From the NCBI GenBank assembly GCA_043809085.1, contig JAZDEG010000030.1:21378-85377 (forward strand): a DNA stretch of 64,000 nucleotides. The letters are read 5' to 3'. Under the pieces are notes generated by a model. The model ran no database searches. It had not been told where the DNA came from and saw nothing but the letters and a program-made list of their open reading frames with translations. Below are positions 1,300-45,629 of this stretch, piece by piece. Position 1 is the stretch's first letter; each line of letters starts with the position of its first letter. A program made the position numbers and the translations under genes. Origin of the DNA: Pseudomonadota bacterium. Its GTDB lineage: Bacteria; Desulfobacterota; Desulfobulbia; Desulfobulbales; SURF-16.

Positions 1300-1899
1300 T
1301 TACTTATAAATCCTATGACACTCCTTCGTCAAACGGTTTACAAGGGCGACTTTTTCTCGTGCCGTCGCGAAATCCCCCTTTTTTACGGCCGTCAGACATC
1401 CCTTGATTTCGGCGCTACATTGCCTCCAGGAGTCAAACCATTCCTTGTCTGCGCAGAGATTGTAATCTTCACACTTCTTCGTCAATTCCTGCGCAGACTC
1501 AGGAGAAAGAGCTGTTTCTTCAGCCGCCAGTTTCGTCACCTCTTTCCAGAGCCTGGCGATATCTTTTTTTAGTTTTTTTCCACCCGATACACCGACTTTT
1601 TTCCCTTGTGATGCTTTCTTTGCAGCGGAAACATCATCCACATCCCCCGCCGGAATTTCTTCGTCAGTTGTCAGTCTACTCTGCAGGAAAATTTCACAGG
1701 AGACAACGCCTTTTTTTAACTGTTTTTTTATCGAAAAAGAAAAGGTGTCACCCATGGTCAGCTTTTCTCCACTGATCGTAATTCCCCCCCTGCCAAGTTC
1801 CTCGGCAAGCCTGGTAAGTTCTTCTGCCACTTCACCAGCCGACTGCAATTTACTTTTACGTTTCAGGATTTCTTTCTGAAATTTCATCTTTTCAGACAC
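1300..1899 (-). CDS. Hypothetical protein, possibly an amphi-Trp domain plus a C-terminal XXXCH-type domain.
   Basis: 199-aa ORF with a Lys-rich middle. The C-terminus reads ...NRLTKECHRIYK. From memory, the N-terminal part (GGITISGEKLTMGDTFSFSIKK) resembles amphi-Trp family members. The family assignment was not verified. Confidence 0.4.
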   Translation of the reverse strand: MSEKMKFQKEILKRKSKLQSAGEVAEELTRLAEELGRGGITISGEKLTMGDTFSFSIKKQLKKGVVSCEIFLQSRLTTDEEIPAGDVDDVSAAKKASQGKKVGVSGGKKLKKDIARLWKEVTKLAAEETALSPESAQELTKKCEDYNLCADKEWFDSWRQCSAEIKGCLTAVKKGDFATAREKVALVNRLTKECHRIYK

Positions 1900-2254: not shown

Positions 2255-2303
2255 TTTTAAAAAAAGATGCGCCGGTTCATTGGTTTCCAGCCCAATGAAC
2301 CGG
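2255..2303 (-). terminator. Rho-independent terminator closing the fdhA-hdrA-mvhD transcription unit.
   Basis: A perfect 12-bp stem pairs ccggttcattgg (2272..2283) with ccaatgaaccgg (2292..2303), with an 8-nt loop. On the minus strand it is followed by CGCATC and a run of 7 T (plus-strand A run 2259..2265). It lies 15 nt after the mvhD stop. Confidence 0.75.
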
Positions 2304-2317
2304 TGTGATACAAGAAA

Positions 2318-2917
2318 TTACAGCGCGGATTCAATAGCCTTGCTCAGCTTGGCATCAATAACTTCAACCAGATGAGCCTCACTGTAATCATTGTCTTTAC
2401 GAAGGGTCTTGGTCGTTGTGCCAAAGGCCATGCGCAGTTTCTTACTGTTGACCAACTCAAGTGCCTTATGGAGTCTTTTTTTCATTTCATCAGGCGCGAT
2501 ACCCTCGGCGTGGCCAAGGGGACCAAGCTCACGCACCTTGGCGGTGAACTCGGTGATCAGCTTGACAAAACGAGGAGCCTCAGCGGCGGAAGCCCACTGA
2601 AGATTATAGCGGGCCGGATTTACTCCGATTCCACTTAAAATTTTATGAACAAGAACATCTACACCCATTGCATCGTAATTACCTACCTGGTAATGACATT
2701 CGCCGAGTTGTCAGCCGCCGGTGAATATACCGGCCGCTCCCTCAATAAATCCTTGCAGGATGAAAGAGGGATCGATGCGTCCGGTACACATGACCCGGAT
2801 TGTTCGCATATTGGGGGGATACTGATACCTTGAAACACCAGCAGCATCTGCTGCGGCATAGCAGCACCAGTTGCAGAGAAAACCCAGTATTTTCGGGTTG
2901 AATGCTTCCTTTGTCAT
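2318..2917 (-). CDS. mvhD: MvhD/FlpD-like protein (methyl-viologen-reducing hydrogenase delta subunit family), a selenoprotein with Sec encoded by the TGA at 2711..2713.
   Basis: Track ORFs 2711..2917 and 2318..2668 are in the same frame. Read-through gives ...GAAGIFTGG-U-QLGECHYQVGNYDAMGVDVLV..., so the TGA replaces the first Cys of the MvhD GCxxGxCHY motif. Total length is 199 aa. Confidence 0.85.
2678..2694 (-). promoter_or_regulatory. Candidate bacterial SECIS hairpin for mvhD.
   Basis: On the minus strand, 16 nt after the UGA: AUUACC-AGGUA-GGUAAU. This is a 6-bp stem with a 5-nt loop containing GGU. Confidence 0.5.
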
Positions 2918-3013
2918 TCTGACACCTCTTCGATGTGACGCACTGACGAATCGTCGGTCAGTCCATCGATTGTTTATATATATATCACAAGCTGAAATTA
3001 ATTATGAGCAATG

Positions 3014-6000
3014 TTACAGCTCACCAAATGCCTTTATCTGGGCGTTGATCTGCTCCATGGTAAAGCCGCCCATGGAAATAGCGAATGTGGGACAACGTGA
3101 CGAGCAGATACCACACCCCTTGCAGGAAGCGGAGATGGTGTGCGCTTTCTTTATCTTGCCATCCTTTACCATTTCGATGGCCTGATAAGGACAAAGGCTT
3201 GCACAAATACCGCAACCGATACACTGTTCTTTATCAACATGAGAAACAATCGGTTCAACGGAAACATGTCCTTTGACAAGTGGAATGGCAGCCTTTGCTG
3301 CGGCAGCCTGAGCCTGTACGATGATTTCATCTAGAGGCTTTGGTGAATGCGCCAGTCCGCACACATAGACACCATCCACGGCAAGTTCAACCGGCCGCAA
3401 TTTCACATGGGCTTCCAGATAGAATTTGTTCTCATTGATCGGAATTTTCAACAATTTGCTCAGAGTTTCGGTATCTTCCGGCACAATGCCGACACTCAAG
3501 ACGATGAGATCAGGGTTCAGACTGACCTCTTCCTGGAGCAAGGTGTCAAAGAAAGACACATTCACATTATTGCCTTTTTTTGTCACTTCCGGTTTGCGGT
3601 CAACCTCGTAGGGAATGAAAACAACGCCTTTTCCCCTGGCTTCCAGATACGCATCTTCTGCATATCCATAGGTGCGCATATCCCGGTAGAGAACAATAAC
3701 CTGGGATTTCGGGTTAATCTCTTTTACCTTCAGGGCATTTTTCACTGCGGTATTACAGCAGACCTTGCTACAGTACTTCAGATCATCGCCGCGGGATCCC
3801 GCGCACTGAATCATCACAACCGAGTCCGGCGCGCGATTTTTTGCTTTACCGGCAAGCGTGGTTTCCAGTTCATGCTGAGTGACAACCTTTGTTGACTGTC
3901 CCAGCATATACATATCAGGGCGATGTTCCCTGCCGCCGGTGGCAACAATGATGACCCCATGATCAATGGTCAGCTCGGTTTCCTTCTTGCCTTTAACGGT
4001 TTTAACCACGGAAGAGAAATTACCGACAAAACCATTGACCGCCACCAGTTCACCGCTGGTCAATACCTCGATTTTTTTGTTTTTCTCAACCCTTTTTACC
4101 AGGTCTTTGATCATCTGGGGCGTATTTTCCCCTTTGATGGTGTCCTGCATTTTTGCCGCATGACCGCCGAGATTATCGTTCTTTTCAACCAGATAACATT
4201 GGAAACCCTGGTCGGCCAGATTTTCCGCAGCAGTGAGACCGGCAATACCTCCACCAATGATCAGTGCCTGGGGGGTAACAGGGACAGTCTGTTCCGGAAG
4301 GGGTCGCAAGTGACGTGCCTTGGCAATTCCCATCCGTACCAGGTCTTTTGACTTAAGGGTTGCCGCATCAGGTTCCTGTGCATGAACCCAGGAACACTGA
4401 TCCCGGATATTAACCATTTCAAAAAGAGAACGGTTAAGCCCTGCATCTTTCAAGGTTTCCTGAAAAAGCGGTTCATGGGTACGGGGTGAACAGGCGGCCA
4501 TGACGATCCTGTTCAACTTGTGCTCTTTGATCTTGTTCTTGATGATCTCCTGGGCATCTTGGGAGCAACTGTAAAGGCTGTCACTGAAATAGGTGACATT
4601 TTCCATTCCGCCGGCATAATCAACAACATTCGGCACATCAACCGTAGAGGCGATATTGATACCGCAACGGCAGACAAAAACGCCGATACGAACCTCATCG
4701 TCTTCGTTTACGAGCTGCTCAACAGGATATTCCTTATGAACAATGCCGGTGCCGCGCTGTTGTTTAATGAGCGCTGCGGCGAGGCCTGCTGCGGCACTTG
4801 ACTGGGTGACGCTTTCAGGAATGTCTTTTGGCCCCTGAAAGGCGCCCGCAACAAAGATGCCCTCGCGGCTGGTATTTAAGGGAGCAAAGGTGTCGGTCTT
4901 GCAGAAATCATATTTATTCAATTCAAAGTTACCGATCCTGGCAAGATCCTTGGCGCTTTTTGGCGAGTCGAGACCAACGGACAGAACTACCATGTCAAAG
5001 GCATCAAAATGATGACTTTCGGCAAGGGTTGAATAGGTCAGTTTAAGCTTTTTGCCCCACGGCATGACATCGGCAACTTTGGCGCGAACGAATTTGATGC
5101 CGAACAGTTCCTCCGCCCGGATGCGAGCCGCATCGAAATCCTTGCCCTGGGTCCGCATGTCCATGTAAAAAATGGTGATTTCGCATTCAGGATCATGTTC
5201 CTTGGCAACCATGGCTTCTTTGATAGCATACATGCAGCACACGGAGGAGCAGTATCCATTGTCACAGCCAAGATCACGGGACCCGACACACTGGATAAAG
5301 GCAATTTTTCCTGGGTGGCGTTTATCGGAAAGGCAGCGAACCTCACCCATGAAAGGTCCCGAGGGGTTGAGCAGTCTTTCGAACTCCAGGCTGGTGACAA
5401 CATCGGGATGTTTGCCGTAACTGTATTTGGCGAGGGCCTCGTCCGGCACCTTGCCGAATCCTGGAGCCATGATCACCGCCCCGACATGAAGTTCCCGTTC
5501 AACCGGTTTCTGTGAAAAATCGATGGCATGACTGCGGCAGACCGGTACGCATATCTTGCATGTATCGTGCTTCAGGTGAAGACATGCGTTTGGATCAATA
5601 AAATAGGTGGCCGGTACCGCCTGGGGATAATCAATATGAATCGGTCGGGTAATAGACAGTCCTTCGTTATAGCTGTCCACCATATGGCGCGGACAATATT
5701 GAGTACACAGACCGCAGGCCGTGCATTTATCGGCGTCGATGTAACGGGGGTTCAAGCGGACTTTGGCTTTGAATTCACCAGGTTTTCCATCAAGAGAAAG
5801 AAAATCGGCGTTGCTCAGAATTTCAATATTGGGAGACCGACCGGCCTCAACCAGCTTCGGAGCGAGGATTCAAAGAGAACAGTCGTTGGTGGGAAATGTT
5901 TTATCAAGCTGAGCCATGGCGCCACCCACTGCTGCTGATTTTTCCACCAGATAGACATAATATCCCAGTTCGGTTAGATCGAGGGCGGCCTGCACCCCGG

Positions 6001-6058
6001 CAACACCGCCGCCGACAACCATCACAGATCCGGACCTGTGTTCCATTGCTTTACCCAT
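3014..6058 (-). CDS. hdrA: Large tandem HdrA-like flavoprotein (heterodisulfide reductase subunit A family) with a C-terminal 2x[4Fe-4S] domain. Selenoprotein, with Sec encoded by the TGA at 5870..5872.
   Basis: Track ORFs 5870..6058 and 3014..5755 are in the same frame. Read-through gives ...[30 protein letters not shown]...[18 protein letters not shown]. There are two FAD-binding modules ([14 protein letters not shown] and [14 protein letters not shown]). An HdrA N-terminal-type Cys cluster ([11 protein letters not shown]) lies between them. The C-terminus carries [12 protein letters not shown] and [12 protein letters not shown]. Total length is 1014 aa. Confidence 0.85.
5834..5848 (-). promoter_or_regulatory. 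Candidate bacterial SECIS hairpin for hdrA.
   Basis: On the minus strand, 21 nt after the UGA: GAGGCC-GGUC-GGUCUC. This is a 6-bp stem including one G-U pair, with a GGUC tetraloop. Confidence 0.5.
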
Positions 6059-6129
6059 TTTGTTCTCCAGTTTTATAATAATCTAGCAAGAGTAATATGA
6101 TAAAATTAACAAGAAATTCATTTCTTTTT

Positions 6130-9100
6130 TTAGGCGATTTTTTCTATACGGATCGCACATACCTTGGCCTCGGGGATCTTACACACCGGATCAAGTGCGT
6201 CATTGGTCAACAGGTTTGCCGCCGCTTCCTTATAGTGAAAAGGAATAAAGACGATACCTGGCTCAACCCGGTCTGTGATTCTTGCCGGCAGAGAAATTGA
6301 TCCACGTCGCGAACGAGCCCTGACTTCTTCACCGTCTTTAATTTCCAGTTGTGCGGCTGTATCCGGATGTATCTCGACATAGGGAGAAGGAGCCGAAAGT
6401 TCAAGAATCTGGGACCGTCTGGTCATAGTGCCGGTGTGATACTGATAGAGAACTCTTCCGGTAGTGAGCACCAACGGATACTCGGAGTCGGCTACCTCCT
6501 TTGGTCCTTTCCAGGCGATCTCAGTAAATTTTGCCCTGCCGATGGGAAAGGTATCGACAAACAGTACGGGGGTTCCGGGGTGGTCTTCACTGGGACACGG
6601 CCACTGCAAACCACCTTCTGCATCAAGACGCCTGTGAGACATACCGGCCATATGGGGCCAACTGCGGCAGATCTCGCTGAAAACTTCTTCAGGAAAAGGA
6701 GCAAACGCGCGATACTTGCCTCCACCGTTCAGGTTGAATTGTCTGCCCGGCCTGCTCATCATGCTCTGAACTGTTCCCACCATCCGGGCGGTAACCATGT
6801 GGATAATGGAAAGATCATCCATGGCATGACCTGGTGGGCAGACAGCGCGCCGCACCCGCTGGACCCGTCTTTCGGTGTTGGTAAAAGTTCCGTCTTTTTC
6901 AGCAAAACATGCGGCCGGCAACACGACATCGGCAAGTTCGGCGGTACAGGTCATGAAGATATCCTGTACCACCAGAAAATCAAGTTTTTCCAGTGCTTTG
7001 GTAGCATGTCCGCTGTTCGGATCACTGAGAACGGGGTTCTCTCCCATTATCCACATGCCGGAAATTTTTCCATCCAAAATGGCGGGGATCATTTCCGTTG
7101 CCGTTAAACCCGGATTTTCAGGAACAGGGGTTCCCCAAATTTCTTCAAAATGTTTCCGGGCATTCTCATCGGCGACCGGTCGGTAACCGGGCAAATTCGA
7201 AGGAACGCAACCCATATCGCTTGATCCCTGCACATTGTTTTGGCCGCGCAAGGGATTAAGACCCGCACCGTGTTTGCCGAGATTCCCGGTAAGCAGAGCC
7301 AGATTGGCAAGGGTTCGGACGTTGTCCGTTCCGGATGTGTGCTGGGTTATGCCCATGGTATAGTAAATACCGGCTCGTTCCGCCTTGGCATAAATCCGTG
7401 CCGCTTCTTCAATATCGGCAGATGGGACACCGGTTATTTTTTCAGCCCATTCGGGAGTGCAGTGACTGACGGAATCTCTCATCTTTTCAAAATGTTCCGT
7501 CCGCTCTTCAATATATTTTTTATCATGAAGGTCATCCCGGATAATAACATGACACATTGCATTAATAAGGGCAGCATCACTGCCAGGGCGTTGCCGCAGC
7601 CACACTCGAGCACTTTTGGTCAGCTCAATCTGACGAGGGTCGGCAACAAGGAGTTTTGCCCCCTTTTTAACCGCATGCATCATGCGCACCGCGATGACCG
7701 GATGGGCTTCTGTTGTGTTGGAGCCGATAACCAGCAGCACCTCGTTGTCTTCAATGCCGGCGATCGTGTTGCTCATTGCCCCGGAACCAAGCGTTGTTGC
7801 AAGACCTGCAACCGTGGGAATGTGTCAGTAGCGGGCACAGTGATCGACATTGTTGGTGCCGATCACCGATCTGAAAAATTTCTGGAATGCATAATTTTCT
7901 TCGACCGTGCACCGGGCAGAGGAAAGACCCCCAAGGGAATCAGCCCCCTTCTCAGCCATTATTCGGGCAAATGAACCGGCGATAAAATCAAGGGCATCAT
8001 CCCATCTTGCCGGTTCCAGCGGTCCGCCTGGTCTTCTGCGGATCAGCGGTCTTTTAAGTCTGTCAGGGTGATGAATAAAATTATGGCCGAAACGCCCCTT
8101 AACACAGAGATCCCCATAATTCGGGCCGACTTCGGGATCAGCGGTGACCTCCATGATGGTCTGCCCCTTGACCCTGAGAATTATCTGGCATCCTGTTCCA
8201 CAGTATGGGCAGGTTGTCCTGACATCATGAACCTCTTCAGACTGAATAGGAACGATTCTGTGTTTTTTGTTCAGTGCTCCGGTGGAACAATTGTCCACGC
8301 ATTTTCCGCAGGAAACGCAGTTGTCCTTGAAGCGAATGACAAGTCCGTGCGGCCTGCCCTCTTCATCAACGGATTCGGCTTTCAATTCAAGGGCATCATA
8401 TTCGCAGACCCTCAGACAACGCTGACAGAAGATGCACTTGTTGGGATCAATATCAATGGCTTTATGAGTTGTGTCTATAGGATAAACCGGAATTGTCCCC
8501 ATACCGGTTTTATTGATATTAACATCATAGGCAATGTCGAGTTCCTTGAGGTTACATCTGTCAAATGCAGTGCAGCCGCAGGAGAGGCAACGTTCCGCTT
8601 CACGGCGCACCATTTTTTCGGTAAAGCCGAGTTTTATCTCATCAAAATCCTGTTTGCAGACTTCGGGCGGTCTTTGCGGCATCTTTTCGCGAAGCTTGAC
8701 ATTAATGCCTTCAAAGTTTTTCAGACTGACGTCATCAAAGCCCTTGCCACGGGTAAAATTGAATCGGCTTTCCGCAGCTTCCTTGTCAACACCCATGACA
8801 TAAGAGTGAATGTTTTCTGCGGCACGGCGACCTGTTACAACAGCTTGAATAACGGATTTAACACCGCTTACGGAGTCACCACCGGCAAAAACACCTTCAA
8901 TGTTAGTCTGTGAAGAACGAGGGTTGGCGACTATCATTCCCCTGTCCGACAGCTCAAGGGATGCTTCAAGTTCTCCTCCCGGCATGACACCATCAATGGC
9001 GAATTGCCCTATGGCGCTTATGACGGTATCAACCGGCAGTGCATTTTTGGATTCGGGAATCGGTACGGGTTCTCGTCTGCCGCGGCTGTCAGGTTCGCCA

Positions 9101-10353
9101 AGTTTCATCCTGATAAGATTAAGCATCAGCCGGGTATTTTCGTTGGAGCGGGAGCAGAGATCCACTGGTGACGCCATCAGCAAAAACTGAACGCCTTCAT
9201 GTTCCGCCTCGCGAATGTTACGCTGATTGGCCGGCATTTCTATCTGGGCGCGGGGATAGACAACGGTAACCTCATGCACGCCGAGTCGAAGAAGCGAACG
9301 GGCGACCTCCATAGCAATGTTGTTTCCGCCAATGACAGCAGCTCGGCGGCCCAGATCAAGCTTTCTTCCGTCGTTAACCATGCGCAGAAAACGGGTCGCC
9401 GTATAGACATGATCATAGTTGGCGCATGGAATATCAAGTGGTTGATCAACAGAAGCGCCGATGCCGATAAAAATTGCATCAAACCCTTGATCTTGAAGAT
9501 CCTGCAAGGAAAAATCTTTTCCCCACTGCTGACTGAGACGTATAGAGATCCCCATTTTCAGAATGGAGTTCACTTCATAATCAAGCACATCCTTGGGTAT
9601 TTTGTAATTGAGAAAACCATAGCGCAAAGCACCGCCTAGTTGAGGGGATGCCTCAAAAATAGTGACGTCATGCCCCTTCCGTGTCAGGAAATAGGCCGCG
9701 GTCAAACCGGAAGGGCCGCCACCGATAACCGCCACCCTTTTTCCGGTAGGTTTGTCCTTGGGAATATTGAGTTCAATCTCATGATTCATGCACCAATCGG
9801 CGACAAATCTTTTGAGATGGTTAATGGAAACAGGTTCATCGACCAAGAGACGGCGGCACCGCGTTTCACAAAACCTGGGACAGACACGTCCCACGGAAAA
9901 AGGAAGAGGATTGCGCTCCATTACCAGTCGAAGGGCCTCCTCATACTCTCCCCTGGCAATATGGGCAATATATCCCTGGACATTTATCTGACCGGGGCAG
10001 GTAAGATTGCACGGAGCCTTACAATCACCGAAATGGGTATTGGAAATGTCGGCAAGGCGTTGTTTTCGATGGGTAATTACCGGTTTGGAGTCGGTCTCAA
10101 TTTCCATCCCATCCTTGGCAAAGGTAATGCAGGCACGGAAAAGCCCTTCTGTTGAAAGTGTTGATTTAAGTCTATATTGACTGAAATCTTTTATTTCAAC
10201 AGCACATAAACCGCATGGATTCTCAGAAAGGGTGTTTTTTACGTAGCACAGGGTCGGGATATTAATATCCGAACGTCTGGCAACTTCAAGAATTGTCAAA
10301 CCAGCCTCGGCGACAATCTCCATGCCGTTCATTTTAAGGGTTATCGTCGACAT
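6130..10353 (-). CDS. fdhA: Formate dehydrogenase alpha subunit (Mo/W-bisPGD) fused to an N-terminal 2Fe-2S ferredoxin domain, a GltD/NfnB-like NAD(P)H-FAD oxidoreductase domain and 4Fe-4S domains. Selenoprotein, with Sec encoded by the TGA at 7825..7827.
   Basis: Track ORFs 7825..10353 and 6130..7776 are in the same frame. Read-through gives ...[33 protein letters not shown]..., compared with the E. coli FdhF motif CARVUHGPSVAGL. The N-terminus has a 2Fe-2S motif (PTLCY...NPCGLCAVE) and a GltD-like region (RVAVIGGGPSGLTAAYFL...VFAGGD). It also has CIFCQRCLRVC, CVSCGKCVDNC and TTCPYCGTGC. Total length is 1407 aa. Confidence 0.9.
7796..7812 (-). promoter_or_regulatory. SECIS hairpin for fdhA.
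   Basis: The minus strand reads UGA CAC AUU CCC ACG GUUGCA-GGUCU-UGCAAC. From memory of the E. coli fdhF SECIS (UGACACGGCCCAUCGGUUGCAGGUCUGCAC), the spacing and the GUUGCAGGUCU core are the same. Confidence 0.75.
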
Positions 10354-10407
10354 AATTTCCAGGATGATACATCAATACTGTTTGCGTAATATTTTACCGG
10401 AATTAAA

Positions 10408-14111: not shown

Positions 14112-16760
14112 TTATTTTCCGCTTGTAAGGCTGTTAATCAGAGACTTTGTGAGGTTAACGGCTTTCGGATGTCTCATAATCAGGACCTCACCACCAGAAA
14201 GCAGCATACAGGTAGCGGTTATAGCTTCCATCATGACACCTCGTGTTTCCATATTTCCTATCATGTCATCAGAGGGAAGCCGACATTCTTTCGCCTTCCA
14301 GACCTCCCGTCCGAGATTGCAGATAATCGGCACCTGCAGTTTTTCGTCCTGCTGGGTGAGAGCTGCCAAGCGGATGCGCTCCATGACTGAGTAGGTGTAC
14401 TCGATACCGTAACCAAGGGCGCCGACAGAAGGATCCATCATGACGGAACTAAGGGGTACACCGAGGTTCTGGAGGAGAATATTGAGCTGTTTGGCAAGAT
14501 TGACATCGATGGGGGAAGCTGCTACCAGTGGATTCTGGAATGCCATGGCCGTGGCACCCAGAGAACGATAATTGGCATCGCCCAACGGCGCCAGACAGAC
14601 TTTTTTGTCCCCGGTCAGGGATGTAATCTCGCGCAACGTTTCCGTGTCCTTTTCTGCATTACCGCAACCCCAAACAATAACCGGCACGTCAATGTTGTTG
14701 ATGACATCGGCCGCTGCCTTGGCCGCCTCGGCAGCATTTCTGTTCATACCATTGGGGTCGGTGCTCACAAGGGAAAGACAGATTGCCTCGGCATTGTATT
14801 CATTGATGCACTTTCTTGCCCAGGCAAGAGGGTTATCGAGAACACCCTGATAATGACGGGCAAGGGAATCAGGCCACTCATCCGGTTTGACATCAAGGAC
14901 ATCCAAGGCAATGACCGGCTTGTTGGGCATTGCACCTTCGAAAAGGTGAAACGGCAAAGAAGCTTCTCCGCCGATCTTAAGCGCTTTATCACCGCTTCCC
15001 AGCAGCACCTCTTTAATGGCGCCGGAATAATTTATTTTATAAGAATCCGCAGGGATCTTGGCAGCGCGCTCGACTAGAGTTGTTTTCTCAACCGCCAGCT
15101 CTTGAGCAGCGAGTTCCGCCGGAACAGCTACTGCGGCGGGTGCAGTTTTTGCTTCAGCAGCTTTCTTGGCCTCGTCGGCAGCCTTTGCCTCAGCGACCTT
15201 CTTGGCTTCTGCCTCGGCCTTTGCTTCAGCAGCTTTCTTGGCCTCGTCGGCAGCCTTTGCCTCAGCGACCTTCTTGGCTTCTGCCGCGACTTTTGCTTCA
15301 GCAGCTTTTTGGGCCTCGTCGGCAGCCTTTGCTTCAGCAGCTTTCTTGGCTTCTTCCGCAGCTTTCTCAGCAGCTGCTTTCTGCACAGTATCATCAACTT
15401 TTGCTTCAGTTGTTTTTTTGACCTCTGTAACAGCCGGGCGAGCGGGAGCAGCACCAGCATCCTGCGGCTGACGTTTCAGTACTGCTTCGGCGCTTGCGAA
15501 ACTTGACAGCGCCTCAAACTGATCGTCGGTCAAATTAAAGGCTTTCCTCAGGGCATTAAGGCCCATCTGCACAGATTGCAACGCCATTTGACGTTCTCTT
15601 TCGTTCATCTCATGCTCTCCTGCATCTTCATATTCTGTGGCAAAGCCGGCTGGAGCCGATACGGCCGCGGCAGCGCGCATTTTTTCAACCTCTTGTCGGG
15701 CCTGGGCGATAATTTTTTCAGCCTCAACCCTTGCTTCAGCAAGAAGCTTCTCATGATCAACCGCTTTTGCCGTTTCTGCGGGAGCGGTTACGATTTCTAT
15801 AGGAGTTTCGACCGGTATTTTTGCAACAGCTGCATCTTCTTCAAACACAGGTCTTGGTGCAAGTTTTGCCCGTTTGACTATCTCGGGAACAGCTTCCTCC
15901 CACTCGATAGCCATGATGTGCACTCCGGATACACCTTTTATTTCCTTGACCCGATTGATAATATCAACACAGATGTTGATACCCTCTTCCTGTTTGTCCT
16001 TGGCATCCTTCATCCGACTGAGGACTTCATCAGTCACATCCATACCGGGGACAAAATTTTTCATGTACTTGGCCATGCCAAGGGATTTGGGAGGGGTAAC
16101 ACCGGCGAGAATATACGCCTTTTCATGGATACCCAGATCACATACCATTTCCATGAAGCGAGAGAATTTATCCACATTGTAAATAATCTGGGTCTGAACA
16201 AAGTCAGCGCCGTTAGCTACTTTTTTGCCGAGACGTGGGGCTCTGAATTCAAAAGGATTGGCAAAAGGATTGGCGGCACAGCCAAGGAAAAGGCGAGGCT
16301 CGGCAGATTTAATTTCCTCACCGCACTGAAATTTCTTATCATCACGCATCGCTCGAACCATGCCGAGTAGCTGGATCGAATCCATGTCGAAAACACCTTT
16401 GGATCCGGGATGATTGCCGAATTTCTGATGATCACCGGTCAAACACAACAGATTTTTCAAGCCAAGAGCAGCGGCTCCCAGAATGTCACTCTGCATGCCG
16501 ATTCTGTTGCGGTCACGGCATGTCATCTGAATGACCGGTTCAACCCCTTCCTGAAGCGTGATAAGACCGGCCGCGATACTGGACATGCGGACAATTGCTG
16601 TCTGGCAGTCAGTAATATTGACGGCGTCAACATGACCTTTCAGTATCCGTGCCTTTTTCCTGACAATTTCAGGGTCGCTGCTTTTCGGCGGCCCCAGTTC
16701 CCCGGTTACGGCAAAGCCACCGGAGGTCAGAATTTTCTCTAAACGACTTCCCGATTTCAT
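14112..16760 (-). CDS. metF-acsD: Fusion protein of N-terminal methylenetetrahydrofolate reductase (MetF) and C-terminal corrinoid Fe-S protein small subunit (AcsD/CdhD), joined by a long Ala/Glu/Lys linker.
   Basis: Single 882-aa ORF with no internal stop. The N-terminal ~300 aa look like MetF (VTGELGPPKSSDPE...NITDCQTAIVRMSS...CLTGDHQKFGNHP). The C-terminal ~320 aa look like AcsD (LKIGGEASLPFHLFEG...VPVIVWGCGNAEKD...DPSVGALGYGIEYTYSVMERIRLAAL...LIMRHP). Confidence 0.85.
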   Translation of the reverse strand: MKSGSRLEKILTSGGFAVTGELGPPKSSDPEIVRKKARILKGHVDAVNITDCQTAIVRMSSIAAGLITLQEGVEPVIQMTCRDRNRIGMQSDILGAAALGLKNLLCLTGDHQKFGNHPGSKGVFDMDSIQLLGMVRAMRDDKKFQCGEEIKSAEPRLFLGCAANPFANPFEFRAPRLGKKVANGADFVQTQIIYNVDKFSRFMEMVCDLGIHEKAYILAGVTPPKSLGMAKYMKNFVPGMDVTDEVLSRMKDAKDKQEEGINICVDIINRVKEIKGVSGVHIMAIEWEEAVPEIVKRAKLAPRPVFEEDAAVAKIPVETPIEIVTAPAETAKAVDHEKLLAEARVEAEKIIAQARQEVEKMRAAAAVSAPAGFATEYEDAGEHEMNERERQMALQSVQMGLNALRKAFNLTDDQFEALSSFASAEAVLKRQPQDAGAAPARPAVTEVKKTTEAKVDDTVQKAAAEKAAEEAKKAAEAKAADEAQKAAEAKVAAEAKKVAEAKAADEAKKAAEAKAEAEAKKVAEAKAADEAKKAAEAKTAPAAVAVPAELAAQELAVEKTTLVERAAKIPADSYKINYSGAIKEVLLGSGDKALKIGGEASLPFHLFEGAMPNKPVIALDVLDVKPDEWPDSLARHYQGVLDNPLAWARKCINEYNAEAICLSLVSTDPNGMNRNAAEAAKAAADVINNIDVPVIVWGCGNAEKDTETLREITSLTGDKKVCLAPLGDANYRSLGATAMAFQNPLVAASPIDVNLAKQLNILLQNLGVPLSSVMMDPSVGALGYGIEYTYSVMERIRLAALTQQDEKLQVPIICNLGREVWKAKECRLPSDDMIGNMETRGVMMEAITATCMLLSGGEVLIMRHPKAVNLTKSLINSLTSGK
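15151..15366 (-). repeat. Three tandem 72-nt units (internal 36-nt sub-period) inside the metF-acsD linker. They encode AEAKKAAEAKAADE-type repeats.
   Basis: Units start at 15151, 15223 and 15295. The first 63 nt of units 1 and 2 are identical (gcttcagcagctttcttggcctcgtcggcagcctttgcctcagcgaccttcttggcttctgcc). Unit 3 is diverged. Confidence 0.9.
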
Positions 16761-19948: not shown

Positions 19949-22162
19949 TTACCTGTTTCTGCCTTCAGCCAACTTGACGATAATATCGTTGGCCTGGCCG
20001 AGTCGAGTGACAAGGGTCTTGAAAAAGTGCTTTGCAACATTCGGATGCTTTTCGATGATCTCCATGATCTTGTCGCCGGGAAAACGCTTGATTGCCGATC
20101 TCCCCTTGGACAGGATTGATGCGGAACGGACGACTCCGGAGATGGCGGACATCTCGCCGAAATATTCATTTGGTTCGGTTATTTCGGCGATTTTCTTGCC
20201 GTCTTTAACCACCATGAGCGCCCCCTGAATAAGTTGAAAAAAATCTATGTCGCTGTTCCCCTGGCGAATGATGACATCCCCATCCTCATACCGTTCAATA
20301 TCAGGGTTAACCAGGTACGCAGGCAGGCTTTCCTCGGTAACGACAGTTTTTTTCATAACCTCATCAAGGCTGGTTACTCCTTGAATTGCCTTGCGGATAG
20401 CCGCATTGCGCAAAGGAATCATGCCTTCTTGAATGGCAACCTTGCGCAGTTGGTCTTCAGGCACCTCGGCGCTGATTGCCTTGGCTACCTCATCCGTAAT
20501 TTCCATCAGTTCAAAAAAACCGACCCTGCCCTTGTAACCACCGCCGCGGCAGACCGGACACCCTTTAGGACCCCAGAGGTTAGTGAGATTCGCCAACTGA
20601 TTTTCACTGAACCCGATACCGAGCAGCTCTTTTTCATCGGGCAAAGGAATCTCGACTTTGCATTCCGGGCACAGACGACGCCCCAGCCTCTGGGACTGAA
20701 CCATGGTAATGGCTGATGCCAGCATATAGGGCGGGATGCCGATATCAACCAGACGACCGATAGTTGCGGCGCAATCATTGGTGTGCAGGGTGGAAAAAAC
20801 CAGATGGCCGGTCATGGCCGCCTTGATGGCGATTTCGGCGGTTTCCATATCGCGGATCTCCCCCACCATGATGATGTCCGGATCCTGCCGGAGAAACGCC
20901 TTAAGGGCCGCGGCAAAGGTCATTCCAACTTCCTGGTGAACGTTGACCTGGTTAATTCCCTTGAAGTTAAACTCAACCGGATCTTCCGCTGTCAGGATTT
21001 TGGTGTCTTCATTGTTCAGCGAGTTCAAAGCGGAATAGAGAGTAACTGTTTTACCGCTACCGGTGGGGCCTGTTACCAGCAGGAGCCCCTGGGGGCGATT
21101 GAGACATCGTTTCAGGGTTTCGAAAACCTCAGGCTCAAAACCGAGTTTGGTCAGGTCGACATTAAGCGAACTTTTGTCCAGAATACGGAGAACGATGCTT
21201 TCGCCAAAAAGGGTGGGCAGGGTGGAAACGCGAAAATCAACCACCTTGTTGCGGCCGATACGCATCTTGATCCTGCCGTCCTGGGGAACGCGGCGTTCGG
21301 TAATATCAAGGTTTGAAAGAATCTTCACCCTGGAATTCAAGGCGTTTTTGATACTCAGGGGAAGATTCATGGATTTGTAAAGAGAGCCGTCAAGACGGTA
21401 ACGCACCTGAAGGGATTTCTCATACGGCTCGATATGGATATCGCTGACTCCGTCCTTGACTGCCTTGATCAGGATACCATTGACCAGTTTGATGATGGGA
21501 GCGTCCGAGGCGGAAAACTCCTCGGCAGTCCCTTCATCCTCTTCGATGGCCATTTCGTCGGCCGCTTCAGAAGCAAGTGACCCGAAGTCGTCGATACTTG
21601 CGACATCTTCTTCTTCCTCAATCTCCTCAGCTGCGCCAAGAAGCTCACGGTACTCTTCATCGGAAATCTTATAGTATTTTTTGTACGCCTCAAGAATATC
21701 CTTTTCCGTTGAAACACAGACAGAAAGAACCATTTTCACTTCTGTCTGCAACTCCTCAACCGCACTGGTATCGGTCGGCTCCGCCATGGTGATCTGCAGA
21801 GTCTTGCCGGTCATGCGCAAGGGCAGGGCACAATATTTTTTGACAATTTTGAAGGGAATGGTTTTAAAAACGTCAGGATTAGGCGGCTCTTTCTTGATAT
21901 CAACGGAGGGGAAATTATGGAGCCGACTCAGGACATTGAGAATAGTCGTATCTTCTATATGTCCGAGCTTGATCAGAATACTGCCCAGGCGCTGGCCGGT
22001 CTTCTTTTGAATGGCAAGCGCTTCATCAAGCTGACTACTGAGGATATGCCCCTCTTTGCGGAGCAATTCGCCAATCTTGACCTTGCCGGCACCGGACTGA
22101 TCTTTTATCGTCGTCCTGAGTGCGGATTTTTTATCGGGAATATTTTTTATTGGTAGCGCCAT
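19949..22162 (-). CDS. GspE/PilB/MshE-family secretion ATPase with an N-terminal MshEN-type domain and a C-terminal cyclic-nucleotide-binding domain.
   Basis: 737 aa. It has Walker A (VTGPTGSGKT), the Asp and His boxes (EDPVEF, GHLVFSTLHTND) and a tetracysteine motif (CPEC...CPVC). The C-terminal ~125 aa carry the cNMP signature (FGEMSAISGVVRSASI). The N-terminus carries two 24-residue MshEN-like motifs. Confidence 0.85.
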   Translation of the reverse strand: MALPIKNIPDKKSALRTTIKDQSGAGKVKIGELLRKEGHILSSQLDEALAIQKKTGQRLGSILIKLGHIEDTTILNVLSRLHNFPSVDIKKEPPNPDVFKTIPFKIVKKYCALPLRMTGKTLQITMAEPTDTSAVEELQTEVKMVLSVCVSTEKDILEAYKKYYKISDEEYRELLGAAEEIEEEEDVASIDDFGSLASEAADEMAIEEDEGTAEEFSASDAPIIKLVNGILIKAVKDGVSDIHIEPYEKSLQVRYRLDGSLYKSMNLPLSIKNALNSRVKILSNLDITERRVPQDGRIKMRIGRNKVVDFRVSTLPTLFGESIVLRILDKSSLNVDLTKLGFEPEVFETLKRCLNRPQGLLLVTGPTGSGKTVTLYSALNSLNNEDTKILTAEDPVEFNFKGINQVNVHQEVGMTFAAALKAFLRQDPDIIMVGEIRDMETAEIAIKAAMTGHLVFSTLHTNDCAATIGRLVDIGIPPYMLASAITMVQSQRLGRRLCPECKVEIPLPDEKELLGIGFSENQLANLTNLWGPKGCPVCRGGGYKGRVGFFELMEITDEVAKAISAEVPEDQLRKVAIQEGMIPLRNAAIRKAIQGVTSLDEVMKKTVVTEESLPAYLVNPDIERYEDGDVIIRQGNSDIDFFQLIQGALMVVKDGKKIAEITEPNEYFGEMSAISGVVRSASILSKGRSAIKRFPGDKIMEIIEKHPNVAKHFFKTLVTRLGQANDIIVKLAEGRNR

Positions 22163-42891: not shown

Positions 42892-43749
42892 ATGGAAGCT
42901 GAAAAAAAATATATTCAAAATATCGACAAACTGATCCCCCGTCCCGATATTGCCCTGGATGTTCTGCAGATGGCCCATGATGAACAGGGGAACATCCAGG
43001 AAATGGCAAAAAAAATCGAGATAGACCCGAGCCTGACCGCCAACATGCTGCGGCTTGCCAACTCCGCGTATTTCGGCCACATGCGGGAAATCACGTCGGT
43101 GAAGGACATCATCATCCGCCTCGGGCTGGAAACCGTGAAAATCATAGCCATTACCGGGGCTTCCGTCGGTCTGATGAAATCACCGCAGCAGGCTTACAAC
43201 CTTGAAACGGGGTCTCTATGGCAGCACAGCCACGCCACCGCAGTCCTTTCCACCGTGATCGCCAAATATGCGGAAATTGAAGATTCCAGCAGTATTTATA
43301 CCGCGTCACTGCTCCATGATGTCGGCAAGGCAATTTTAAACAGGCCGCTGCAGATAGCCATCAGCAACAATAAAAATATGGGAAAAAAATTCCGCACATT
43401 GATTGAGCTTGAGATGTATCTGCTCGGTACCGATCACGCCAAGGTCGGCATGGCTCTGCTGCAGAAGTGGGGGCTTCCCGAGGAAATCTACCTGCCGGTT
43501 GGCTTTCATCATTTCCAGAAACATGCCAAGGAAGAACAACTGCTTCACGTGAAGATCGTCAGCCTCGCCAATTTTCTGGTGGAAAGCATCGGCATCCGTT
43601 CACTGATACCGGAAAACTTCAACTTTGATGTGCAGGAATTCATCGACCAGAATCAGGAATTGCCCGATGTGCCGAATTTCCAGGAAAACATGGAGAAAAT
43701 TATCAACAAATTCTTTTATCAGTACACCGAGACAACAAAATTGATTTGA
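42892..43749 (+). CDS. HDOD domain signalling protein.
   Basis: 285 aa. The HDOD pattern is present (MLRLANSAYFG...IIRLGLETV...LLHDVGKAIL...DHAKVGMALLQKWGLPEEI). Confidence 0.8.
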   Translation: MEAEKKYIQNIDKLIPRPDIALDVLQMAHDEQGNIQEMAKKIEIDPSLTANMLRLANSAYFGHMREITSVKDIIIRLGLETVKIIAITGASVGLMKSPQQAYNLETGSLWQHSHATAVLSTVIAKYAEIEDSSSIYTASLLHDVGKAILNRPLQIAISNNKNMGKKFRTLIELEMYLLGTDHAKVGMALLQKWGLPEEIYLPVGFHHFQKHAKEEQLLHVKIVSLANFLVESIGIRSLIPENFNFDVQEFIDQNQELPDVPNFQENMEKIINKFFYQYTETTKLI

Positions 43750-43782
43750 AAGAGAAGTGAAACAAATTAAATTTTCTTGGCA

Positions 43783-44844
43783 TCACTGAAGATCACGCTG
43801 ACGGAGCAATGTCACCCGGTTTCCTCCTTCCCGTTTTGCCAGATGCAGGGCTTTATCGGCCAGGGAGAAAAAATCTTCATAATTTTTGCTGTTATCATGG
43901 CTGTTTGCCGCGAGACCGATACTGATGGATACCTGACGGCTGATCTTGCCGTCATTAAAAACAAACTGACTCATCTGGGTATGAATATCCCTGGCGACTA
44001 TCTCCCCTTCCTGGCAGTCGGCATCCGGCAGCAGAACTCCGAATTCATCACCGCCTATCCGGCCGCAGATATCGGTACTTCGCACCTTTTCCACCAGTAT
44101 TTCGGAAACTTCACTCAACAGATAATCACCGAACTTTCTGCCGCAGGAATGGTTGATTTCCTTGAATTTATCGATGGCGATAAGCAGCAACACCAGCCCG
44201 CTGCCACGACGCTCAGCCAATCGGTATTCTCGTCCAAGCACCTCAATGAAGTGACGACGATTGATGAGTCCGGTAAGATCATCCTTGATCTCAAGCTCAC
44301 TGAGCTTGGTCAACATTTTTTTGCAGTCGGTGATATCCCGGCAGACGATAAGACATTGCCAGACAAAACCGAACTCATCCTTGATGGGATAGGCGGAAAT
44401 GGAATACCATCTTCCTCCCAGTCTCGGTTCGTTTCTTTCAAGATGAAAAGATTTCCCTGAATGAAAAACCTTACAGGCCGGGCAGTGGGATGCAGGATTA
44501 TCCTGTCCGTGAAACAGATGAAAACATTTTTTCCCGGAAAGATCTTCTTCGTAACCAAGGATCTCGCTGGTGGCCTTGTTGGCCCTGACAATATTGAATT
44601 CCCGGTCCACGATGTACAAAAGATCATCAAGGACATTAAACGTTTCCTGCCAGAGCCGGTGGGGATCAAGATATCTCCCCAGGCTTTTCGACGTATTTAC
44701 GCCATTTCCAGAGGATTCAAGTTCCTCTATCTTCCTGCGCAGTCTGGCCACATCCTCGGCCAACTCCTCGCGCGATTTATTACAATATTTCATGACAGCT
44801 TGTCCCCTTCCTGCAAAGCTGTTAAGAATAAAATAAAAGAACAA
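43783..44844 (-). CDS. PAS-GGDEF diguanylate cyclase.
   Basis: 353-aa ORF. It has a PAS-like N-terminal half and a GGDEF domain with an intact motif (RIGGDEFGVLLPD) and an RxxD-like I-site region. The true start may be the internal MKYCNK. Confidence 0.85.
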   Translation of the reverse strand: MFFYFILNSFAGRGQAVMKYCNKSREELAEDVARLRRKIEELESSGNGVNTSKSLGRYLDPHRLWQETFNVLDDLLYIVDREFNIVRANKATSEILGYEEDLSGKKCFHLFHGQDNPASHCPACKVFHSGKSFHLERNEPRLGGRWYSISAYPIKDEFGFVWQCLIVCRDITDCKKMLTKLSELEIKDDLTGLINRRHFIEVLGREYRLAERRGSGLVLLLIAIDKFKEINHSCGRKFGDYLLSEVSEILVEKVRSTDICGRIGGDEFGVLLPDADCQEGEIVARDIHTQMSQFVFNDGKISRQVSISIGLAANSHDNSKNYEDFFSLADKALHLAKREGGNRVTLLRQRDLQ

Positions 44845-44939
44845 CTGACGGAAATTGCCAACAGCTATTCCGTCAAAATTTTTGCATTTTATATCAACCT
44901 GCTGGAAAATTCCAGTAATAAATTTATATTCTTATCTTC

Positions 44940-45629
44940 ATGAAACAAAAAAGAGAATGTCAGAGATGCGGCACCTGCTGCAGGAAAGGCGGACCAGCTC
45001 TGCATAAAGAGGACAGAGAGCTGATTGAAAACGGTACGATTTCCCTCAGTCATCTGGTGACTGTCAGACAGGGAGAACCGGCGTTTAATCCCTTCAAGGA
45101 ACAGGTTGAGCCTGCCCGGCACGAGTTCATCAAAATCGGCGGCAAAAAGGGAAGCTGGGAATGTCTTTTTTTTGACGGGGTCAAGTCGGCATGTACCATC
45201 CACCAAAACAGACCACTGGAATGCCGACTGCTGGAATGCTGGGATACGGATGCAGTGGGTGAAATTACGGGAAGGGACTGCTTATGCCGTTTTGATATCA
45301 TGCCGGACAACGTGCACATGAAGGACTTCATTGTCCGGCACGAAGAAACCTGTTCGATGAGCCGGGTATGCTCACTGCTCGACGAACTCCTGGCAGACGA
45401 GACGCAACAGGAAATCCATGAACGGCTAACCGGGATAATGCAAAAGGATCTGCAAATACGCAGCAGCGCTGTTGCCAGATTTCATCTCAGCCTGGAAGAG
45501 GAGCTGTTCTATTTTGGTCGTCCACTCTTTCATGCCCTTCACCATCCGCGCCTACATATTGATTTCAAAGGCGGGACAATCCGTTTGTCAATCCTCCCTG
45601 ACGCCACAAAGGGCTCATGTTCACGCTGA
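44940..45629 (+). CDS. YkgJ-family (UPF0153) Cys-cluster protein.
   Basis: 229 aa. The N-terminal CQRCGTCCRKGGP motif and the later C..C..C residues are typical of YkgJ. It ends 1 nt before the convergent pgm stop. Confidence 0.65.
   Translation: MKQKRECQRCGTCCRKGGPALHKEDRELIENGTISLSHLVTVRQGEPAFNPFKEQVEPARHEFIKIGGKKGSWECLFFDGVKSACTIHQNRPLECRLLECWDTDAVGEITGRDCLCRFDIMPDNVHMKDFIVRHEETCSMSRVCSLLDELLADETQQEIHERLTGIMQKDLQIRSSAVARFHLSLEEELFYFGRPLFHALHHPRLHIDFKGGTIRLSILPDATKGSCSR

Follow-up and report, generated by a model that had tools for sequence, protein, structure and literature searches.

The window analysed here, a 64,000-nucleotide stretch of contig JAZDEG010000030.1 from a Desulfobulbales bacterium (assembly GCA_043809085.1), carries on its minus strand an mvhD gene of the FlpD family whose reading frame is crossed by a single TGA. 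We found that positions 2318..2917 encode one 199-residue MvhD-type iron-sulfur protein (199 codons followed by a TAA stop), with one contiguous MvhD domain running across this codon. The UGA itself, codon 69 of the 199 (2711..2713), was read directly and is conserved in relatives. It is very probably decoded as selenocysteine (Sec) by SelB and Sec-tRNA(Sec) by means of a 17-nucleotide (nt) hairpin, yielding a single MvhD adaptor that would pass electrons from a [2Fe-2S] cluster to the flavin of an HdrA-like protein. What we present are comparative signatures; the binding of SelB, the actual incorporation of selenium and the service of residue 69 (U69) as a [2Fe-2S] ligand are the parts of this account that we infer.

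One MvhD protein across an in-frame UGA

The original prediction, made from the DNA letters and a list of open reading frames (ORFs), had joined two minus-strand ORFs, 2711..2917 and 2318..2668, on the grounds that they share a frame and that the 14 codons between them are open. Translation confirms this: the two ORFs lie in one frame with a single TGA between them (2713..2711). The 14 open codons that lead from the UGA to an internal ATG at 2668 (2669..2710, minus strand) read QLGECHYQVGNYDA; they hold the conserved Cys74-His-Tyr and most of the hairpin discussed below, and their amino acids are conserved in all mvhD orthologues compared. With Cys written at codon 69, the joined product matches the FlpD/MvhD family PF02662 from end to end, residues 10-132 covering profile positions 1-123 of 123 (E 7.6e-46; 155.6 bits against a cut-off of 22.3). 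It also matches the NCBIfam VhuD/HdrA2 MvhD-domain models across the UGA site, and it aligns over residues 6-135 with 5ODC_D, a solved MvhD chain, at E 5.6e-44 and ungapped across that site. The solved MvhD subunits matched are chains of methanogen Mvh-Hdr complexes. The identity proposed earlier, that of a Sec-containing MvhD, therefore stands up to alignment of the full 199-residue product with Pfam, with PDB MvhD chains and with homologues.

The place of the UGA within the family is equally clear. Codon 69 aligns with Cys67 of the archaeal motif GGC-H-L-G-D-C-H-Y. Across 150 diverse representatives of the family, Cys occupies each of five columns (residues 15, 18, 44, 69 and 74 of the mvhD product) in 146-150 sequences; the window product retains Cys in all of these columns except 69, where it has UGA, and shows the C-H-Y motif. 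Column 69 itself is Cys in 149 of these 150 representatives and, among the 120 database proteins nearest to the product, in 115. The other five of the 120 comprise four proteins with W and one 116-residue C-terminal fragment (P0110, 95% identical to the mvhD product). The W in the four homologues is simply TGA read as Trp by gene callers. Thus, the earlier reading of the frame as GIFTGG-U-QLGECHYQVGNYDAMGVDVLVHK, with the UGA in place of a motif Cys, agrees with both sets of homologues, in which the TGA falls on the Cys of GGC-x-x-G-[DE]-C-H-Y. It had also been anticipated that a standard gene caller would produce fragments or a pseudogene. The P0110 fragment and the four W-translated homologues bear this out, and neither fragment of the window gene is in the protein collection, though neighbouring proteins of the same NCBI contig (e.g. 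AcsB, MFH1216922.1) are present there, which fits a gene that was missed or marked as a pseudogene.

Conservation of the UGA was assessed in two sets of loci. A species scan with one genome per species gave 80 mvhD loci at 54-89% protein identity, drawn from Desulfobulbaceae, Desulfurivibrionaceae, Desulfocapsaceae, relatives of cable bacteria and other Desulfobacterota; codon 69 is TGA in 78 of them and TGC in two (L042 and L077). A metagenome scan seeded with Cys-form proteins gave another 80 loci (TGA in 53, TGC or TGT in 27) and was the source of further TGA forms and of the Cys-form control. Cys-form mvhD paralogues inside the fetched loci had been considered for that control and were dropped in favour of the metagenome scan, being too few and too distant. 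The flanks of the UGA are conserved at the protein level on both sides, while synonymous sites elsewhere are saturated, and purifying selection, as judged from these alignments, acts on both sides of the conserved UGA.

An RNA hairpin conserved with the UGA

Downstream of the UGA, within the coding sequence (CDS), lies the 17-nt hairpin AUUACC-AGGUA-GGUAAU (2678..2694, minus strand), with the 5' arm AUUACC at 2694..2689, the loop AGGUA at 2688..2684 and the 3' arm GGUAAU at 2683..2678. This is the 6-base-pair (bp) hairpin with GGU in its loop that the original prediction had placed 16 nt downstream of the UGA and had taken for a bacterial selenocysteine insertion sequence (SECIS); both the fold and its position are reproduced here. 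The stem begins exactly 16 nt 3' of the TGA (+19), and the loop occupies +25..+29, its GU being 27-28 nt downstream of the U of the UGA. Geometry of the kind used by bSECISearch calls for a loop 16-37 nt after the UGA and a G or GU in the apical loop, and the minimal SelB-binding hairpin of fdhF is comparable in length to the 17-nt mvhD hairpin. The mvhD element has this geometry, being a stem-loop just 3' of the UGA with GU in its apical loop. It shares these features with the SECIS elements of the Escherichia coli fdhF type (Rfam SECIS_2 to SECIS_5), which are likewise stem-loops within the CDS. In contrast to known bacterial SECIS elements, its 6-bp stem is A/U-rich; its loop GU is also 5 nt further from the UGA than that of the window's own fdhA. 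Folded alone, the 17-mer has an energy of -4.1 kcal/mol (z -2.8; 2 of 200 shuffles fold equally well).

In a single sequence the mvhD hairpin is not beyond chance; it is comparison with other sequences that lifts it above. For this comparison, 126 distinct TGA-form and 26 Cys-form sequences were stacked in register. His75-Tyr76-Gln77-X78-Gly79-Asn80 is encoded as CAT-TAC-CAG-NNN-GGT-AAT in every one of the TGA forms. At the same sites the 26 Cys forms have CAT in 16, TAC in 12, GGT in 5 and AAT in 15, a contrast with Fisher p values of 4e-9 to 2e-21 in tests that count related sequences as independent. The 17-mer folds at -4.1 or -4.5 kcal/mol in all TGA forms, whereas the hairpin is possible in just one of the 26 Cys forms. 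Among 84 conserved degenerate codons of mvhD, only the five hairpin codons have zero synonymous entropy in the TGA forms, and the neighbouring codons for Cys74, Tyr81 and Asp82 are near maximal variability. The SECIS reading put forward earlier is upheld by this restriction of the nucleotide conservation to TGA forms. As read from the stacked alignment, selection acts on the hairpin at the RNA level, and it does so in the UGA forms only.

The hairpin also leaves a mark on the protein. The loop GU is kept in every TGA form, and residue 78, whose codon contributes to the loop, is Val, Phe or Leu (NUN) in 125 of the 126 TGA forms and Val (GUN) in 119, so that GU is retained in the loop; most Cys forms have Asp at this position. 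The RNA element thus dictates an amino acid. Most relatives have GUU at codon 78, which makes possible a seventh, A-U pair and a GGU triloop, whereas the GUA of the window gives the five-base loop. An extension of the SECIS by a lower helix (pairs 10-12/41-43 and 15-17/37-39) was considered and found unsupported: most of its positions pair about equally in Sec and Cys forms, pair 17/37 is mismatched in 55% of the Sec forms, and 15/39 is the sole pair that distinguishes the two forms. Codons flanking the UGA (2699..2716) are biased in Sec forms as well, with Gly68 GGC in 120 of 126, Gln70 CAA in 108 of 115 and Glu73 GAA in 123 of 126, unlike those for Gly67, Gly72 and Cys74, which vary. This bias could reflect the context of the UGA or a stretch of the SECIS that is not paired.

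Probable selenocysteine decoding and its alternatives

The two genes upstream of mvhD provide an independent view of how UGA is used in this organism. The first, an hdrA-like gene of 1014 codons located 96 nt upstream of mvhD (3014..6058, minus strand), has a Sec UGA at 5870..5872 in the motif DCSL-U-ILAPK and, 21 nt past this codon, the hairpin GAGGCC-GGUC-GGUCUC (5833..5848, minus strand), whose stem opens at +24 counted from the U. The TGA is present in 67 of 68 related loci, and 66 of 67 have an identical hairpin; mvhD is next to hdrA in the 68 related loci likewise. The UGA site of HdrA corresponds to the Cys-pair position, occupied by Sec197 in Methanococcus maripaludis (PMC13518236). 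The second gene (6130..10353, minus strand, 1407 codons; fdhA below) joins a 2Fe-2S/GltD-like NAD(P)H module to FdhA. It has its Sec UGA at 7825..7827 in the classical HCARY-U-H site, and the TGA recurs in 45 of 48 related loci. Its fdhF-type SECIS hairpin, GUUGCA-GGUCU-UGCAAC (7796..7812, minus strand), shows compensatory stem changes among loci (GUGGCC/GGCCAC, GUGACC/GGUCAC, GUUGCA/UGCAAC). Rfam SECIS_3 matches the element over 7772..7830 at E 8.3e-7, though its 41.1 bits fall short of the gathering score, which is 63, and this is the sole permissive match in 2300..10400. Counted from the U of UGA, the GU of the loop is at +22/23 in fdhA, +27/28 in mvhD and +31/32 in hdrA; the spacing in mvhD, falling between the other two, is thus within the range that the organism uses. 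Taken together, the conserved TGAs and hairpins of hdrA and fdhA are a strong, if indirect, indication that this organism decodes Sec.

Several observations weigh against the decoding of UGA69 as Sec, the support for which comes from sequence comparison. When 36 ORFs of the 64-kb window were scanned against NCBIfam, none matched selA, selB or selD, and ARAGORN detected no tRNA, hence no tRNA-Sec, either there or across 60 related loci. With 6 bp and -4.1 kcal/mol, the hairpin is both short and weak, and it is thermodynamically unexceptional in context: it stays in the minimum-energy fold of its 45-nt context, but with z -0.77 (42 of 200 shuffles), and it is outside the minimum-energy fold of a 67-nt context (z -1.4). 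The relatedness of the sequences entering the Fisher tests has already been mentioned, and all six stem pairs are invariant in the 126 sequences, so that there is no covariation for or against pairing. Finally, the mvhD hairpin drew no match from the Rfam SECIS models when 8 kb (2300..10400) were searched with E <= 10 as the limit, and at gathering thresholds Rfam has no match in the whole window. The absence of sel genes from the window may mean only that they are located elsewhere in the genome, and in our view the missing Rfam match does not imply an inactive hairpin, as the models represent elements of other gene families.

The alternative that survives best, while still improbable, is read-through of the UGA without Sec, whether by reassignment of TGA to Trp or Gly or by a near-cognate tRNA inserting Trp or Cys, in which case the hairpin would only stimulate read-through. 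The inserted amino acid cannot be told from sequence alone, and four database homologues are indeed translated with W at codon 69. Nevertheless, TGA is the ordinary stop of 18 of the 34 confident window genes, so the genetic code is standard, and in-frame TGAs were found in just three confident genes (mvhD, hdrA and fdhA), each aligned with Cys in homologues and each in a family reported to carry Sec at that site (PMC1794560, PMC13518236). The homologue residue is Cys and never Trp or Gly, save where TGA itself was translated. Moreover, neighbouring fdhA has a canonical, covarying SECIS that Rfam recognises.

It is harder still to credit a split gene, in which translation would stop at the UGA and restart at ATG 2668, the two polypeptides (68 and 116 residues) then combining into a working MvhD. 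An ATG does lie 14 codons past the UGA, and ORF lists and some databases show two pieces (as for P0110), but the codons that would then go untranslated are conserved at the amino acid level and include Cys74-His-Tyr, near-invariant in the family. Inspection of the sequence upstream of the internal ATG revealed no Shine-Dalgarno site at a normal distance; the ATG of the complete mvhD is preceded, 7 nt 5', by the Shine-Dalgarno-like AGAGG (2925..2929, minus strand). Residue 84, the would-be initiator, is not always Met, being I or L in some orthologous loci. The original prediction had named homologues consistently ending at this position as separate polypeptides as the case that would speak against it; what we found instead is that Cys-form homologues and solved structures are single chains.

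The least credible alternative is a pseudogene or a sequencing or assembly error, the TGA being a nonsense mutation or a miscalled Cys codon in a broken gene: TGA is one base from TGC and TGT, and the related L042 and L077 do have TGC, but the same TGA in 78 of 80 independent species genomes and 53 metagenome contigs, between flanks conserved as protein amid saturated synonymous sites and ahead of a hairpin kept only in TGA forms, would require one systematic error common to all assemblies, which is implausible across independent projects and platforms. The counts from the two scans exclude a recent mutation along with error and a broken gene.

The two species loci with TGC deserve a separate comment. 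Both L042 (at 10205 in locus coordinates) and L077 (at 9935) keep the hairpin stem. In L042, TGA is still present in hdrA and fdhA; L077 has TGT in hdrA too, and its mvhD loop lacks GU (AGCUC). The two look like Sec-to-Cys reversions with a fossil SECIS, a base-call error being a possible alternative explanation for the TGC of L042.

Role, known relatives and gene context

For decoding of UGA69 as Sec, the established bacterial mechanism suggests the following course of events. The hairpin 16 nt past the UGA, inside the CDS, would act as the SECIS; Sec would be delivered to the ribosome with the UGA in the A site, and translation would go on instead of stopping. By analogy with homologues of solved structure (5ODC and others), we infer that the resulting MvhD binds a [2Fe-2S] cluster and feeds HdrA, passing electrons one at a time to the bifurcating flavin of the HdrA-like protein whose gene lies just upstream. 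Within a gene cluster of the Wood-Ljungdahl pathway, its partner is probably the fusion of NAD(P)H module and FdhA whose gene precedes hdrA.

U69 is probably one of the four [2Fe-2S] ligands. The assignment follows by elimination, there being five conserved Cys columns of which the N-terminal one has been reported as a non-ligand: in Methanothermobacter marburgensis, Cys16 is an additional, non-ligand Cys situated between the cluster and the flavin (PMC13580544). The closest functional comparison is with BamF of the Geobacter metallireducens class II benzoyl-CoA reductase, an MvhD-like protein with one Sec (Sec19) and a [2Fe-2S] cluster that feeds an HdrA-type bifurcating flavoprotein (bioRxiv 10.64898/2026.04.10.717634). 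The BamF partner is a fused double HdrA, and the window hdrA is likewise double-length (1014 codons). The position of Sec differs: BamF has it at residue 19, taken to be the same position as M. marburgensis Cys16, whereas the window mvhD has Cys18 there and its Sec 51 residues later, at GG-U-x-x-G-E-C-H-Y. We would give even odds to the proposal that in this clade Sec replaces a [2Fe-2S] ligand, and not the redox-active extra Cys of the BamF Sec19/CxxU site, with a selenium-ligated cluster at the entry to HdrA-type bifurcation as the outcome. In more than 120 Desulfobulbales-like lineages, among them relatives of cable bacteria, the arrangement is fixed. A Sec at the ligand site may already be partly implicit in the archaeal VhuD proteins with two Sec: two is the number in archaeal members of the family, while bacterial members carry a single one of these (PMC1976440). 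The GG-U site may be one of the two.

Comparison with methanogen MvhD (Methanothermococcus thermolithotrophicus and M. marburgensis; 5ODC, 9SW2), which are Cys forms, reveals the same five Cys columns, the CHY motif and the [2Fe-2S] relay to HdrA. The differences are Cys67 in place of Sec69, and His68 and Asp71, which PMC13580544 discusses as neighbours of an unknown ligand, in place of Gln70 and Glu73. Unlike methanogen MvhD, the window protein has a 65-residue C-terminal extension, and no hydrogenase subunits MvhA/G are encoded nearby. Two observations concern PDB entries. The HdrA chain 9sfi_A shows X at the site aligned with the HdrA Sec (camXilapk), which suggests that the PDB sequence copy writes Sec as X. 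The VhuD chain 9sfi_K (M. maripaludis) scores far below the other MvhD chains, as would fit X at conserved Cys positions. As for the window HdrA, its double-length product has two flavin-binding regions and is reminiscent of fused HdrA dimers such as BamE.

The window mvhD is a correct but ordinary case in a family already known to use Sec; indeed, FrhD/MvhD is one of the commonest known bacterial selenoprotein families (PMC1794560, PMC1976440, PMC2702500). In 2006 it ranked third in number among bacterial selenoproteins, with 19 members including one in Desulfotalea psychrophila of the Desulfobulbales, and Sec-FrhD/MvhD beside Sec-HdrA has been described in Deltaproteobacteria since that year (PMC1794560). 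Desulfobacterium autotrophicum has four Sec mvhD genes, each after hdrA or hdrL (PMC2702500), FrhD/MvhD is the most abundant selenoprotein family of the Olavius delta-symbionts (PMC1976440), and current reviews list the Sec FrhD/MvhD/VhuD family (PMC9312934, PMC13188914). With this family (COG1908, PF02662; Deltaproteobacteria, Clostridia, methanogens) the window gene shares UGA for a conserved Cys, the existence of Cys paralogues and a position directly after a Sec hdrA. It differs from the published glpC-hdrA-frhD-frhG-frhA hydrogenase operon in being part of an fdhA(Sec)-hdrA(Sec)-mvhD(Sec) unit that adjoins Wood-Ljungdahl genes in uncultured bacteria of Desulfobulbales-like type.

Nothing in this case alters how Sec decoding is currently understood. 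What may be slightly new is the breadth of the SECIS and its absolute invariance in the clade, its imprint on residue 78, the three-selenoprotein FdhA-HdrA-MvhD unit beside Wood-Ljungdahl genes and the Sec at a likely ligand position. The practical consequences concern annotation. The mvhD, hdrA and fdhA genes of this clade are each prone to being annotated as fragments or pseudogenes, which would falsely imply a defective Wood-Ljungdahl-linked formate/HdrA module in Desulfobulbales-like genomes. The invariant 17-nt hairpin together with the GG-TGA-CA context is a simple and specific marker with which such genes can be rescued. Furthermore, more than 120 coherent sequences are added to a known selenoprotein family, and they offer a clean natural comparison of Sec and Cys forms in which a SECIS within the CDS constrains one amino acid as well as the choice of codons. 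A Sec that probably occupies the place of an Fe-S ligand would be worth spectroscopic study.

A terminator scan located a 12-bp hairpin followed by a T run, resembling an intrinsic terminator, 15 nt after the mvhD stop (2272..2303, minus strand); with so strong a terminator-like hairpin directly 3', mvhD is probably the last gene of an fdhA-hdrA-mvhD transcription unit. Just past this terminator lies a 199-codon Lys/Glu-rich ORF (1300..1899, minus strand) that has no Pfam match. Upstream of the unit, the minus strand encodes a Wood-Ljungdahl cluster of acsC/cdhD, acsB, a MetF-AcsD fusion, cooS, folD, a PilB-like ATPase and fhs.

A scan of the window for single-TGA read-through candidates missed fdhA; beyond mvhD and hdrA, all but one of its candidates overlap confident genes. 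The exception is the minus-strand segment 43339..44931. It falls within 42892..45629, where four consecutive plus-strand ORFs lacking an NCBIfam match overlap a 353-codon minus-strand ORF (43783..44844) and where the scan flags the minus strand as a long frame with two TGAs. Two members of the Wood-Ljungdahl cluster are unusual in themselves. The fusion ORF (14112..16760, minus strand, 882 codons) joins a MetF-like methylene-tetrahydrofolate reductase (residues 4-300) to an AcsD/CdhD corrinoid subunit (516-880), and the ATPase (19949..22162, minus strand), placed between folD and fhs, is a PilB/MshE-type ATPase of type IV pili with an N-terminal domain that binds cyclic di-GMP (c-di-GMP).

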